Origin: Escherichia coli
Lineage (GTDB): Bacteria > Pseudomonadota > Gammaproteobacteria > Enterobacterales > Enterobacteriaceae
DNA: 64,000 bases
NCBI RefSeq assembly: GCF_003018115.1
Contig: NZ_CP027457.1
Strand: one strand, 5' to 3'
The notes under the pieces are model-generated. The model did not search any database, was not told where the DNA came from, and worked only from the letters and a program-made list of their open reading frames with translations. Positions 2,838 through 9,418 of the stretch are shown here, one piece after another. Made by a program: the position numbers and the translations under genes. Position 1 is the stretch's first letter, and the number at the start of each line of letters is the position of its first letter.

Positions 2838-4118
2838 ATGAAGAAAATAAGTTTAACCACGATGATTCTTTTGGCGCTGGTACTTGGAATGATTATCGGC
2901 GTAGTGCTCAATAACACTGCTTCACCGGAAACCGCAAAACTCTATGCGCAAGAAATATCGATATTCACGACGATTTTCTTACGACTGATAAAAATGATTA
3001 TCGCTCCGTTAGTGGTCTCTACCCTGGTGGTAGGTATTGCTAAAATGGGCGATGCCAAAGCCCTTGGTCGTATTTTTTCTAAAACACTTTTTTTATTTAT
3101 TTGCGCCTCATTGCTGTCAATTGCCTTAGGCTTGATAACGGTAAATTTCTTCATGCCAGGCACAGGAATTAATTTTGTTGCACACGGTGCCGAAACCACA
3201 GGAGTGGTCGCGTCAGAACCCTTTACGCTAAAAGTATTTATTTCGCATGCTTTCCCCACCAGCATTGTCGATGCCATGGCGCACAATGAAATTTTGCAAA
3301 TCGTGGTGTTCTCAATTTTCCTCGGCTGTAGCCTGACGGCGATTGGCGAGAAAGGCAGCGCCATCGTTCACGCCTTAGATTCGCTGGCACATGCCATGTT
3401 AAAGCTCACTGGCTACGTCATGCTCTTCGCTCCCCTGACCGTATTCGCCGCTATTTCAGCATTGATTGCTGAACGAGGACTGGCCGTTATGGTGAGCGCC
3501 GGGATCTTTATGGGTGAATTTTATTTCACCATGTTATTACTTTGGGTGCTGCTTATCGGTCTGGCCATCGTTTATGTCGGCCCCTGCATCAGACGCCTGA
3601 CCCGCGCCCTTTCGGAACCCGCCCTGCTGGCATTTACCACATCCAGTTCTGAAGCGGCTTTTCCGGGAACGCTTGAAAAACTGGAGCAATTTGGCGTTTC
3701 CCCCAAAATTGCCAGCTTTGTCTTACCCATTGGCTACTCATTTAATCTCGTTGGATCAATGGCCTACTGCTCCTTCGCCACAGTTTTCATCGCCCAGGCC
3801 TGCAATATCCATTTATCCATCGGTGAACAAATCACCATGCTGTTGATCCTGATGTTGACCTCGAAAGGAATGGCTGGCGTACCACGCGCCTCAATGGTGG
3901 TTATCGCCGCCACGCTCAACCAGTTCAATATTCCGGAAGCGGGGCTGATCTTGCTGATGGGCGTTGATCCGTTCCTTGATATGGGGCGTTCCGCGACAAA
4001 CGTCATGAGCAACGCAATGGGCGCTGCGATGGTGAGTCGGTGGGAAGGCGAACATTTCGGCGAGGGCTGTCGGGGTAAAGCATTAAAACCCAATGAATCG
4101 AACGTTGCTCTGCCCTGA
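2838..4118 (+). CDS. dicarboxylate/amino acid:cation symporter (DAACS family, DctA/GltP-like), 426 aa
   Basis: ATG at 2838 preceded by GGAGG. Highly hydrophobic multi-helix protein with DAACS-like segments; the longer ORF from 2817 is probably an upstream extension. Confidence 0.8.
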   Translation: MKKISLTTMILLALVLGMIIGVVLNNTASPETAKLYAQEISIFTTIFLRLIKMIIAPLVVSTLVVGIAKMGDAKALGRIFSKTLFLFICASLLSIALGLITVNFFMPGTGINFVAHGAETTGVVASEPFTLKVFISHAFPTSIVDAMAHNEILQIVVFSIFLGCSLTAIGEKGSAIVHALDSLAHAMLKLTGYVMLFAPLTVFAAISALIAERGLAVMVSAGIFMGEFYFTMLLLWVLLIGLAIVYVGPCIRRLTRALSEPALLAFTTSSSEAAFPGTLEKLEQFGVSPKIASFVLPIGYSFNLVGSMAYCSFATVFIAQACNIHLSIGEQITMLLILMLTSKGMAGVPRASMVVIAATLNQFNIPEAGLILLMGVDPFLDMGRSATNVMSNAMGAAMVSRWEGEHFGEGCRGKALKPNESNVALP

Positions 4119-4225: not shown

Positions 4226-5878
4226 ATGTCCAAACCATTTATCTGGCAAGAACCGTTTCTACAAAATAAAGACGGTACAGAATATACATTAATTAGCGAT
4301 CAGCATATTACAGTAACGGAATTAGACGGCGAAGAAGTGATAAAAATCGCTCCTGAAGCATTAACGCTGCTTGCCCGGCAGGCATTTTATGAAGCCTCTT
4401 TTTTCTTACGTTCCGCTCATTTGCAACAGGTCGCCAGCATTCTTAACGATCAGCAGGCCAGTAGTAATGATAAATACGTTGCGTTGCAGTTATTACGTAA
4501 TGCTGAAGTCTCAGCAAAAGGGGTATTACCCAACTGTCAGGATACCGGCACCGCAACTATTGTTGCCAGTAAAGGGCAACAGATATGGACCGGAGGTAAC
4601 GACGCTGAAGCCTTAAGCAAAGGCATTTACAGTACTTTCCAGGAAAATAATCTGCGCTTTTCACAAAATGCGCCGCTGGATATGTATACCGAAGTCAATA
4701 CGCAAACCAATCTCCCGGCGCAGATTGATATCAGCGCTGTCGCTGGTGATGAGTACCATTTTCTCTGTGTTAATAAAGGGGGCGGCTCCGCCAATAAAGC
4801 CGCGCTTTATCAGGAAACCAAATCCTTATTGCAACCAGAAAAACTGACCGCATTTTTAATCGAAAAAATGAAATCGCTGGGCACCGCTGCCTGCCCGCCT
4901 TACCACATCGCCTTTGTCGTCGGAGGGCTTTCAGCCGATCAAACCTTAAAAGTTGCCAAGCTGGCCTCAACGAAATATTACGACAATTTGCCCACCAGCG
5001 GAAACGAGCAGGGACAAGCATTCCGTGATATTGAGCTGGAAAAAGCGTTGCTCGAGGCCAGTCAGCAATTTGGTATTGGTGCACAATTTGGGGGGAAATA
5101 TTTCGCTCATGATATTCGCGTCATGCGTCTGCCGCGTCACGGTGGCTCTTGCCCGATAGCTATGGCGCTCTCCTGTTCTGCCGATCGCAATATCAAAGCA
5201 AAAATTAACAAACACGGTATCTGGCTGGAAAAACTCGAACACAATCCGGGGCAATATATTCCAGCCTCATTGCGGGAAGAAAATCACGCGCAACATGTAC
5301 AACTGGATCTAAACCGTCCGTTGCGTGACGTGATGCTGGATCTCGCCAGATTACCGGTAGGCACCCGCGTGTCGTTAAGTGGTCCCATCGTAGTGGCGCG
5401 CGATATCGCCCACGCCAAAATAAAAGCGCGGCTGGATAGCGGCGAATCGATGCCGGAGTACCTGAAGCATCATATTGTCTATTACGCTGGCCCGGCGAAA
5501 ACACCGGAGAACATGGCCTGCGGTTCACTGGGTCCAACCACGGGCGGTCGAATGGACGGTTATATCGATACCTTCCAGGCGGCTGGCGGCAGTCTGGTGA
5601 TGTTATCGAAAGGTAACCGCAGCCAGCAGGTCACCGATGCCTGTCACAAACATGGCGGCTTCAATCTGGGAAGTATTGGCGGTGCTGCTGCGTTACTGGC
5701 GCAAGAATATGTCAAAAGTCTGCGTTGCCTGGAATATCCGGAGCTGGGTATGGAAGCGGTGTGGATGATGGAAGTGGAAAATCTGCCCGCATTCATCCTG
5801 GTAGATGATAAAGGCAATAATTTCTTTAGTCAGTTTGAGCAGCAACACCGCTGCGCCAGTTGCCCTGCGGGACATTAA
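4226..5878 (+). CDS. fumD: class I (Fe-S) fumarate hydratase paralog, 550 aa; candidate mesaconase (FumD-like)
   Basis: Near full-length similarity to E. coli FumA/FumB as I remember them (WQEPF, GVLPxCQDTGTA, [41 protein letters not shown], GSLGPTTxGRMD). The symbol is from my memory of a described O157:H7 mesaconase and is not verified. Confidence 0.75.
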
Positions 5879-5887
5879 GGAAAATGA

Positions 5888-6490
5888 ATGGAAGCGCGAA
5901 TTTCAACTGAACGGCATGTGCAGCGCCAACAGAAATTGAAGGAACAGGTCGATACGCGCGTCGCGGCGGCGATAGAGAAAAAAGGGATCTTGATTGTTTT
6001 CACCGGCAACGGCAAAGGGAAATCCACTGCCGCGTTTGGTACTGTGACGCGCGCGGTGGGTCATGGCAAAACGGTGGGGGTTGCGCAGTACATCAAGGGG
6101 CAATGGGACAACGGCGAATACAACCTTCTCCAGCCGCTGGGGGTTGAGTTTCATATTATGGGAACCGGTTTTACCTGGGAGACACAGAACCGGCAAGCGG
6201 ATATCGACGCGGCGAAAGAGGTCTGGTCGGAAAGCAAACGGATGCTGGCTGACAAGCGTTACGACTTAGTGGTGCTTGATGAGCTGACCTATATGCTGGC
6301 TTACCATTATCTGGATACCGAAGAAGTGATCGCTTCTCTGCAAAACCGCCCGGCACAACAAAGTGTCATTGTCACCGGACGCGGTTGCCACAGTCAGATA
6401 TTAAAAATGGCAGATACGGTCAGCGAAATCCGCCCCGTCAAACATGCTTTTGATAACGGCATACAGGCCCAGCCGGGTATCGACTGGTAA
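5888..6490 (+). CDS. ATP:cob(I)alamin adenosyltransferase, BtuR/CobA paralog, 200 aa
   Basis: P-loop VFTGNGKGKSTAAFG plus GFTWETQNR and LDELTYM motifs align along the whole length with E. coli BtuR as remembered. RBS AAGG upstream of the ATG at 5888. Confidence 0.85.
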   Translation: MEARISTERHVQRQQKLKEQVDTRVAAAIEKKGILIVFTGNGKGKSTAAFGTVTRAVGHGKTVGVAQYIKGQWDNGEYNLLQPLGVEFHIMGTGFTWETQNRQADIDAAKEVWSESKRMLADKRYDLVVLDELTYMLAYHYLDTEEVIASLQNRPAQQSVIVTGRGCHSQILKMADTVSEIRPVKHAFDNGIQAQPGIDW

Positions 6491-6493
6491 TAA

Positions 6494-6520
6494 CTGCGCC
6501 TGGCATCCTGCCAGGCGCAG
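6494..6520. terminator. hairpin CTGCGCCTGGCA-TCC-TGCCAGGCGCAG between convergent genes
   Basis: Perfect 12-bp inverted repeat lying between the adenosyltransferase stop (6490) and the LysR stop (6524), followed by GTTTTA. Confidence 0.5.
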
Positions 6521-6523
6521 GTT

Positions 6524-7429
6524 TTACATCTCCTGCGGTACGACCGATTTCGCCAGCAACCATTCACGAAATTGCTGCAAGTGCGGTGAGTCAGACTTCT
6601 CTTCCTGCCACGTCATAATAAAACGATTACCGGTACGAATAGGCACATCACAGGGGATCACCATATCGCCACTATCCAAATCATGTTGAATAGCGAACCG
6701 TGGTAACAGCGCCACGCCGAGATTAGAGCGCACGGCGGCAATCAGCATTGAAAGCAAATCGAAACGTGGTCCGTTGTTGACCAGCGGACTGCTAACGCCA
6801 GATAAAGCAAACCACTCTTCCCAGCCAGTAATACGGGTGCTTTGATGCAGAAGTGGTAACTCAGTAAGCAGTTCTGCCACTGACAGTTTTTGATCGGACA
6901 TTGCAAGCAAACTGCCGCTGCATACCGGCAAAATCTCCTCATCAAAGAGATATTCTACTTCCGCCCAGGGCGCGCAAAAATTTTCGCGCATAATGACAGC
7001 ATCGTACTCCCGATTAAGAAAATCGCCGTTATTAGCTAAAGAATGAATATTAACAATAATATCGGGATGTAACTTTGTGAATTCATGTAAATTTGGGATC
7101 AACCAGTGGGTACTAAAAGTAGGATTAACGGCAAGTTCAATAACCTGAACCGTAGGCTGCCAGGTCATAATGGTATTGGTATCGCGTTCCAGCTTATTTA
7201 ATGTTTCTTTTACTATCCCCAGGTAATACTTCCCTGCATCATTAAGAAAAATGCGTTTTTTAGAGTGTGAAAATAACGGAGTACGTAAAAATTCCTCCAG
7301 CGCACTTACTTGTCTGAATACTGCACTTTGGGTTAACGCTAACTCCTCTGCCGCTCTGGTATAACTTTCATGACGTGCGACGACCTCAAAAGTCACCAGC
7401 AGTTCCGTTTTAGGTATTTTCCCTCGCAT
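6524..7429 (-). CDS. LysR-family transcriptional regulator, 301 aa
   Basis: N-terminal HTH region (LTQSAVFRQVSALEEFL) and the usual ~300 aa length. Convergent with the pathway operon. Confidence 0.85.
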   Translation of the reverse strand: MRGKIPKTELLVTFEVVARHESYTRAAEELALTQSAVFRQVSALEEFLRTPLFSHSKKRIFLNDAGKYYLGIVKETLNKLERDTNTIMTWQPTVQVIELAVNPTFSTHWLIPNLHEFTKLHPDIIVNIHSLANNGDFLNREYDAVIMRENFCAPWAEVEYLFDEEILPVCSGSLLAMSDQKLSVAELLTELPLLHQSTRITGWEEWFALSGVSSPLVNNGPRFDLLSMLIAAVRSNLGVALLPRFAIQHDLDSGDMVIPCDVPIRTGNRFIMTWQEEKSDSPHLQQFREWLLAKSVVPQEM

Positions 7430-8194
7430 AATGCCTTCCGTGAAAAAAATAACAATTCAAAAAATTATTTTATAAAAAATAGTAGTGCTAATGAATATCA
7501 TAATTCAAATAAACAAACCAGTCAGCTATATGTCCAACCAGAAAAATAAAGTGACAATAATCCTAAAACAGAAATTTCACCTCAGTTATCCGCATGCAAT
7601 ACTTTAAAGCTATTATTGCAAGAATATTATTCATATACATGAATATACTCTAAATAACTCGAGTTGCAGGAAGGCAACAAATAATGAATTTCCAGAAACT
7701 TACATAAGTCAGTGGCCAGGGTGAGCGAACATCGATGCAGAACATGCAACTTGAAGTATGACAAGTATACAATGATAAATTTAGATACCCTATGTTATAT
7801 ATTATCTATGTCTGGTTAAATTGAATGAGTCATGGCCTTAAAAGACTTCGCAAAAGATAATTTCTCTTTAACAATAAGCCAGATTTACCACTTGTAAAAA
7901 TTGCTATCGCCACATACACTACGCGCGTTTTCTTTCCCTTTTGCTGGCTGCTGACCGGAAAGACAAAATTACCCTCGCAATACAGGGGGTTTTTTAACGT
8001 CTATATTTCAGGACAGCGTTATTCATCATCTTTCAAGGCTTGATAAAGCCTTTCTGCGCAAAGGGATCCAACTTTCCCGCGCCAACAATATTGTTTCATT
8101 ATCTCGTCCATCTGGTGCCAGTGCCCGCGTACTGCTGCCGGACGAACTACCGCTGGAAGAAAAAGCAGTAACACAACTGCTTGATTTTGCAGAA

Positions 8195-9418
8195 GTGAAG
8201 CTACCAGACCACCCAGGTTATGTGCGCCAGACGTGCGCGACGCCAGATTTTCACCCCGGCAATGGCGTCCCCGTTGGCGCGGTGGTGGCCTCAACGCCGG
8301 ATTTAGTCATTCCCGCCGCCATCGGCACCGATATTTCTTGCGGCATGCGGCTGCTAACGACTGGATTAACACTTGAGCAAGCCGAAGCGAATAAAGACGT
8401 CATCACTCAGCGGTTAACGCAAGTGCTACTGCAAAATGAGCGCGATGTTCCGTTATCCGCACAAGCGTTCACTGCGCTTTTTGATGGCGGACCGGCAGAT
8501 TACGTATCGACCTTGCCATCAGCAGGTCTCTGGACACGCACGAATATCCCCCGAATGGTACAAGAGATTGACCGCTGCATTGGGCTTAACGAGCATAACA
8601 GTCATTCGCGTTATGCCCCACCCGCCCTACTGGCAACGGACCGCGCATTACTCCGCGATCCTTGTCTGGGTACGCCAGGTTCAGGTAATCATTTTATTGA
8701 ACTTCAGGTGGTTGATAGCGTGGTCGATCGCCATGTGGCCTGGCAACAAGGGCTGAAAACGGGCGATATCGTGGTGATGATCCACAGTGGATCGCGAGAT
8801 GTCGGCTTTTACGTCGGACGACGCTGGATGGACCGTGCCCGTGCTGAATGGCCCGCCGGGCATAAACACCCACAAAGCGGGTTATATGGTCTGGCTGGTG
8901 GACTGGCGGAGGAATATCTACAAGCGATGGGAATGGCGGCGCGTTACGCATGGTTAAATCGCGTGACCATTGCGGAAATGGTTCGCGTATGTTTTGCCGA
9001 TTTATTTCATCAGGATGATTCACATCTGGTGGTGGATGTGCCGCATAACATCATCCTTCGCGAACATGAAATGAATATTCATCGCAAAGGTGCAACACCG
9101 GCACACGCGGGCGCTCTGGCATTAATCCCCGGTTCAATGGGCGATTATACGTGGCTTGCGGTAGGTTGCGGCAACTCGGAGTGGTTGTGGTCATGCAGTC
9201 ATGGAGCAGGACGCAGCCAGCGTCGGCAGGCGATGCGCTCACGCGCGACTGAAGAGTCAACGCTGCCGTGGCAATGCGTCACATTGCGTGAAGAACGACG
9301 TCTTGAAGAAGCGCCAGCTGCTTATAAAGATATTGCTCCGGTTATCGAAGCCCAACAAGAAGCCGGATTGATTCAGCCTGCGGTCAGATTACGACCGTGG
9401 TTAACGTTTAAGGGGTAA
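8195..9418 (+). CDS. RtcB-family RNA ligase homolog, 407 aa from the first canonical start (GTG at 8195)
   Basis: RtcB motifs DISCGM, GSGNHFIE, HSGSRDVG, HRKGAT, SCSHGAGR. The frame stays open for 80 codons upstream (7955-8194) with no ATG, GTG or TTG, so the true start is uncertain. Confidence 0.8.
   Translation: MKLPDHPGYVRQTCATPDFHPGNGVPVGAVVASTPDLVIPAAIGTDISCGMRLLTTGLTLEQAEANKDVITQRLTQVLLQNERDVPLSAQAFTALFDGGPADYVSTLPSAGLWTRTNIPRMVQEIDRCIGLNEHNSHSRYAPPALLATDRALLRDPCLGTPGSGNHFIELQVVDSVVDRHVAWQQGLKTGDIVVMIHSGSRDVGFYVGRRWMDRARAEWPAGHKHPQSGLYGLAGGLAEEYLQAMGMAARYAWLNRVTIAEMVRVCFADLFHQDDSHLVVDVPHNIILREHEMNIHRKGATPAHAGALALIPGSMGDYTWLAVGCGNSEWLWSCSHGAGRSQRRQAMRSRATEESTLPWQCVTLREERRLEEAPAAYKDIAPVIEAQQEAGLIQPAVRLRPWLTFKG

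Follow-up and report, generated by a model that had tools for sequence, protein, structure and literature searches.

A second, predicted CobA-type corrinoid adenosyltransferase gene at the end of the glutamate mutase-methylaspartase-fumD operon of Escherichia coli

Introduction

Escherichia coli imports vitamin B12 and does not synthesize it de novo. Glutamate mutase requires adenosylcobalamin, and cobalamin becomes usable for this enzyme only after reduction to cob(I)alamin and ATP-dependent adenosylation. In the pdu operon, the adenosyltransferase PduO is encoded together with the reactivase PduGH, in a cell that also has a separate housekeeping CobA. A comparable pairing, of EutT with the reactivase EutA, is found in the eut operon, again in a cell with a separate housekeeping CobA, and provides a precedent for combining an adenosyltransferase with a reactivase (PMC9426561).

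The closest described gene cluster is that of Kronen & Berg 2015 (PLoS One 10:e0145098, PMC4682846), whose Figure 5 gives the order GlmS, GlmL, GlmE, Mal, DUF1446, GltP, FumD, CobA, LTTR and labels the penultimate gene 'CobA, cob(I)alamin adenosyltransferase'. The cluster was reported in 26.5% of E. coli and in 90.6% of O157:H7 strains, FumD was characterized biochemically as a promiscuous mesaconase/fumarase, GlmL/MutL was described as a reactivating chaperone of glutamate mutase, and the fate of the citramalate formed by the glutamate mutase pathway was stated to be unknown (PMC4682846). In the main text of that paper CobA is labeled only, with no analysis or assay reported, and beyond the figure label we found no work on the activity, expression or genetics of this paralog in the literature searched. 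Here we describe the gene (hereafter island cobA) as it occurs in a window of E. coli DNA, the whole 64,000-nucleotide stretch that was analyzed; it is the CobA gene of the Kronen & Berg cluster and differs from it in nothing.

Results

The island gene encodes a member of the CobA/CobO/BtuR family

Over its first 25 kb the window matches E. coli F9792, and likewise sister O169:H41 strains, at 100% identity; coordinates given without a prefix refer to the window, and those prefixed L001 to the corresponding locus of F9792. Island cobA lies on the + strand at 5888 to 6490, with an ATG at 5888 and a TAA at 6488 to 6490, and encodes a protein of 200 amino acids; these coordinates coincide with the PGAP annotation in F9792. 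The RefSeq name of the gene is cobO in every genome listed. Over its whole length the protein matches Pfam PF02572 CobA_CobO_BtuR (E 4.7e-64, 216.2 bits against a cut-off of 25.7), NCBIfam TIGR00708 cobA (246.6 bits, cut-off 167.75) and NF004637 (295.6 bits, cut-off 185), in each case above the curated cut-off, which makes it a member of the CobA/CobO/BtuR family.

Residues 6 to 200 of island CobA align without a gap to residues 2 to 196 of Salmonella CobA (PDB ID: 1G5R, E 2.5e-88), and the alignment with a further Salmonella CobA structure (PDB ID: 4HUT) is also gapless; the protein is collinear with the solved enzymes over their full length, so that both the Phe/Trp pair and the N-terminal helix are covered. 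It resembles CobA/BtuR (Salmonella CobA, PDB ID: 1G5R, 1G64 and 4HUT; E. coli BtuR) in family, in a near-identical length and in the P-loop and F/W motif, and differs from them by eight clade-specific substitutions and by an N terminus that is four residues longer. Across 82 CobA-family sequences 75 positions are invariant. The P-loop of island CobA, the motif for MgATP binding, reads G40-N-G-K-G-K-S46-T47, conforming to GNGKGK(T/S)T, and within this motif position 46 alone varies, being Thr in the housekeeping copies and Ser in the island clade. Phe95 and Trp97 are invariant in 82 of 82 sequences; they are the counterparts of Salmonella F91 and W93, a pair with a role in the reaction. With these conserved catalytic motifs in place, the product is predicted to be an active adenosyltransferase.

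At the eight clade-specific positions (K32, S46, D74, H89, I90, G92, I106 and Y125) the 14 island-type sequences all have the same residue, and this residue is not the one carried by 90% or more of the 67 housekeeping sequences. S46 sits in the P-loop, and H89, I90 and G92 stand just ahead of the F95-x-W97 motif. This placement, together with the long stem branch of the island clade described below, would fit an enzyme that differs from BtuR in its corrinoid or reductant preference or in direct hand-off to GlmS. We regard such a specialized variant as very improbable, because the substitutions (T to S, V to I, A to G, Q to H) are conservative and because any old paralog is expected to carry fixed differences; we make no functional claim for them.

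Island cobA closes an accessory operon

The gene order in F9792 is cydA, two hypothetical genes, glmS, glmL, glmE, mal, AtuA/DUF1446, DUF4387, symporter, class I fumarate hydratase, cobO (the island gene), a convergent LysR gene, an RtcB-family gene and mngB. The window begins inside the methylaspartate ammonia-lyase (methylaspartase) gene mal, whose 3' part occupies 1 to 989 on the + strand (Pfam MAAL_C/MAAL_N, NCBIfam TIGR01502) and whose start lies 252 nt before the window; glutamate mutase is therefore encoded just outside it. Directly upstream of mal are glmS, glmL and glmE, which with the full mal gene span L001 4560-9102. A methylaspartate-pathway cluster is thus present, with glmS, glmL, glmE, mal and fumD adjacent and on one strand (L001 4560-13991).

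Downstream of mal, and also on the + strand, the operon continues with an AtuA/DUF1446-family gene (993 to 2363, Pfam PF07287) and a DUF4387 gene (2360 to 2677, Pfam PF14330), whose start overlaps the atuA-like stop by 4 nt. Both genes (993 to 2677) recur in each of the 13 orthologous clusters from other genera, with a conservation of 84 to 92% for the pair and of 91 to 92% for the AtuA/DUF1446 gene. They are followed by a GltP/DctA-like dicarboxylate/amino acid:cation symporter gene at 2838 to 4118 (+ strand, Pfam PF00375), for which we used the PGAP start at 2838 (L001 10951-12231); it is labeled GltP in the published Figure 5 (PMC4682846) and is presumed to be the glutamate importer. The class I fumarase paralog fumD occupies 4226 to 5878 on the same strand (NCBIfam NF011921, 1277.7 bits).

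The junction between fumD and cobA (5876 to 5887, + strand) is tight: the fumD stop codon TAA at 5876 to 5878 is overlapped by the cobA ribosome-binding site, AAGGA at 5877 to 5881, 6 nt ahead of the ATG, and the intergenic gap measures 9 nt. The 13 orthologous clusters from other genera all retain TAAGGAG together with the 9-nt gap. An earlier note on this DNA, made from the sequence alone, had described cobA as close to a fumarase paralog with its ribosome-binding site overlapping the upstream stop, and had expected the B12-dependent enzyme just outside the window to be glutamate mutase; the AAGGA/TAA overlap and the glmS, glmL and glmE genes directly upstream of mal bear out both statements. 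In the accessory operon glmS-glmL-glmE-mal-atuA-DUF4387-symporter-fumD-cobA, whose members are presumably co-transcribed, island cobA stands last and is translationally coupled.

Beyond cobA, the 33-nt gap that separates it from the convergent LysR gene is occupied by a hairpin at 6494 to 6520 (no strand assigned; L001 14607-14633), a likely terminator with a GC-rich stem of 12 bp (9 GC), CTGCGCCTGGCA-TCC-TGCCAGGCGCAG followed by GTTTT, which was the top-ranked terminator-like site in our scan. The LysR-family (GcvA-like) regulator lies at 6524 to 7429 on the - strand (Pfam HTH_1 and LysR_substrate) and follows cobA in all 13 loci of other genera, with 79 to 86% conservation. No sigma-70-like promoter was found on the + strand of L001 3903-15716 in a crude scan whose total hits fell below the shuffle expectation, and an Rfam search detected no B12 riboswitch or other family in the island, the sole match in L001 being an unrelated naRNA4 element near sucC.

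The glmS-to-cobA stretch has an E. coli-like G+C content of 0.51, and the island edges and spacers are AT-rich (0.33-0.38). The cydA-proximal edge consists of the two hypothetical genes upstream of glmS and outside the window (L001 2565-4012; 314 and 140 aa, G+C 0.37-0.38), whose products have no Pfam match, and is followed by a 548-nt AT-rich spacer before glmS. On the other side, a 590-nt AT-rich spacer (G+C 0.33) precedes the RtcB-family gene (region 7430 to 9418) and contains a terminator-like hairpin on the + strand, ACCCTC-gcaataca-GGGGGT followed by TTTTT, at approximately 7971 to 7996, about 25 nt upstream of the ATT codon at 8021 that PGAP uses as the start of the rtcB-like gene. The first canonical in-frame start of that gene is a GTG at 8195, and its 58 N-terminal codons include no ATG, GTG or TTG. 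The 13 orthologous clusters from other genera all lack the rtcB-like gene. Elsewhere on the F9792 chromosome, and outside the window, narK is annotated as frameshifted (L083 33554-34943).

A housekeeping btuR is present in the same genome

F9792 carries an intact housekeeping btuR (annotated cobO, 196 aa) at 1,342,502-1,343,092, in the context sohB / yciK-btuR / rluB, which is the same as in K-12. The two proteins are 67% identical, and the island gene differs from btuR in residing in an accessory catabolic operon, away from the yciK-btuR-rluB locus, and in occurring in only ~21% of E. coli genomes. Of 5426 complete E. coli genomes, 5422 gave a btuR-like sequence, at ~68% DNA identity, in a sensitive DNA search; genomes carrying the island show such sequence at two places.

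Two other origins can be dismissed. Relocation of a sole adenosyltransferase gene is ruled out, because btuR is intact in the same genome, and recent duplication of E. coli btuR is ruled out by the 67% protein identity, by saturated synonymous sites and by placement in a separate clade. In a midpoint-rooted neighbor-joining tree without bootstrap, the island-type sequences group into a single, long-stemmed clade that falls outside the housekeeping clade of Enterobacteriaceae, Erwiniaceae, Pectobacteriaceae and Yersiniaceae. Between E. coli and other genera, pN for island cobA is 0.09 to 0.12, against a saturated pS of 0.67 to 0.83. Island CobA is a long-diverged paralog of housekeeping BtuR, and these values indicate strong purifying selection, as would be seen for a maintained, functional gene and not for a decaying duplicate.

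Island cobA is inherited together with the glutamate mutase genes

Of 5426 complete E. coli genomes, 1121 (20.7%) carry island cobA, with a DNA identity never below 95%, and 1117 contain 80% or more of the 10-kb stretch from glmS to cobA. In one E. coli record the island adenosyltransferase gene is on a plasmid, and in O127:H6 (NZ_LT903847.1) the operon is reduced to a 510-bp glmS remnant. For other genera we retained, with one genome per species, the best 80 of 573 confirmed matches, so that the resulting 80 loci are a sample, and these were screened by tblastn with the island and btuR-neighbor proteins. In all 13 loci at 80 to 86% identity, the gene is preceded by glmL, glmE, mal, atuA, DUF4387, the symporter and fumD and followed by LysR; Citrobacter, Klebsiella michiganensis, Lelliottia, Buttiauxella and one Raoultella metagenome-assembled genome are represented. 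Of the loci at 71% identity or less, 66 of 67 (among the best 80 of 573) show the yciK-btuR-rluB context. Both types, the island-type gene and the yciK-btuR-rluB copy, were seen in nine of the 13 orthologue genomes, again among the best 80 of 573 matches.

The earlier note had proposed a second BtuR/CobA-type adenosyltransferase besides btuR, to be checked by locating btuR elsewhere in the genome and by co-occurrence with glutamate mutase genes, and to be abandoned if the island gene were the only one of its kind. The proposal stands: an intact btuR encoding a 67% identical protein is found at yciK-btuR-rluB in F9792, the gene and the operon occur in near-equal numbers of E. coli genomes (1121 versus 1117), and 13 of 13 close orthologues lie within the cluster.

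A related copy in Morganella morganii

The sister of the island clade is a copy from Morganella morganii FAM24679, which shares four of the eight signature residues. At this locus (L062 6573-18664) the order is symporter, fumD, cobA and a convergent LysR gene, and this unit directly adjoins the 3' end of a cob operon (cobT, cobC, cobS, cobU, cbiP, cbiO, cbiQ), with a truncated LoiP-like ORF between the two. No glm or mal genes are found within 6.5 kb upstream of the Morganella unit, so that fumD and cobA may have been linked before the full cluster existed.

This arrangement raises the possibility that island cobA is a redundant passenger, an active adenosyltransferase acquired from a lineage with a fumD-linked general cobA and having no special tie to glutamate mutase. 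The adjacency to a cob operon without nearby glm or mal genes, the sister position of the Morganella copy with half of the signature residues in common and the identity of the catalytic residues of island CobA with those of BtuR are all compatible with such an origin. The pattern of retention speaks against it: in at least five genera strong purifying selection has kept the island copy intact, a housekeeping copy is also visible in nine of 13 genomes (among the best 80 of 573), the tight fumD stop/Shine-Dalgarno junction is conserved, and loss of cobA alone is essentially unseen in E. coli, the gene being found in 1121 genomes and the operon in 1117. We consider the passenger explanation unlikely, if somewhat less so than a specialized variant.

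Discussion

The island gene was correctly recognized as an adenosyltransferase gene, but it was already known: because it is annotated and was shown in the 2015 paper, it is an ordinary gene and represents no new kind of biology. We think it probable, with good but not complete confidence, that island cobA is a CobA-type paralog that, as the last gene of the operon, makes adenosylcobalamin in step with glutamate mutase. Its dedicated role, of the kind that the earlier note had suggested, would be to supply or regenerate the cofactor for that enzyme, its presumed client. Imported or damaged cobalamin, as cob(II)alamin or hydroxocobalamin, would be reduced to cob(I)alamin, which the predicted adenosyltransferase would adenosylate with ATP ahead of its use by glutamate mutase, so that adenosylcobalamin could be made or re-formed whenever the mutase is expressed. 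Together with the GlmL reactivase, island CobA would constitute a closed local cofactor repair cycle.

Such an assignment places island CobA beside EutT and PduO. Like them, it is encoded in the operon of an adenosylcobalamin-dependent enzyme, with a reactivase alongside (EutA in eut, PduGH in pdu, GlmL here), and it shares the cell with a separate housekeeping enzyme. The combination that defines a dedicated adenosyltransferase, a gene encoded with its client and a separate general enzyme in the same genome, is found in F9792, and at least nine other genomes carry both copies. Unlike EutT and PduO, the island enzyme is CobA-type; the protein families are unrelated, and the likeness is one of role only. 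In Pfam, island CobA gave PF02572 and a sub-threshold Co_AT_N match alone, and thus no sign of homology to EutT or PduO. Unlike the eut and pdu operons, the island operon has no microcompartment genes beside it.

Several observations count against a dedicated role. Kronen & Berg found no laboratory condition under which the E. coli O157:H7 cluster was expressed, with or without hydroxo-, cyano- or adenosylcobalamin (PMC4682846). BtuR has the same catalytic residues and might itself be able to supply glutamate mutase. In the figure legend on the clusters for clostridial glutamate fermentation, no adenosyltransferase is named (PMC4682846); on the strength of that legend, glutamate mutase therefore needs no linked one. 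Nor did the island yield a B12 riboswitch.

A bolder version of the dedicated role is that island CobA is the first CobA-type, as opposed to PduO- or EutT-type, single-client enzyme, that it runs a private repair and loading cycle with GlmL, and that the eight substitutions, in the P-loop and by the F95/W97 lid, alter its corrinoid, reductant or hand-off properties. We offer this only tentatively and think it doubtful as a whole.

With the dedicated supply of adenosylcobalamin as the preferred reading, island cobA would round off the cofactor provision of an accessory pathway from glutamate to citramalate. About one-fifth of E. coli genomes, O157:H7 among them, have this pathway, as do several opportunistic enterobacteria. 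Should it turn out to be relevant in the gut, knowing that it comes with its own B12-activating enzyme would help in its reconstitution and in the metabolic engineering of mesaconate production.
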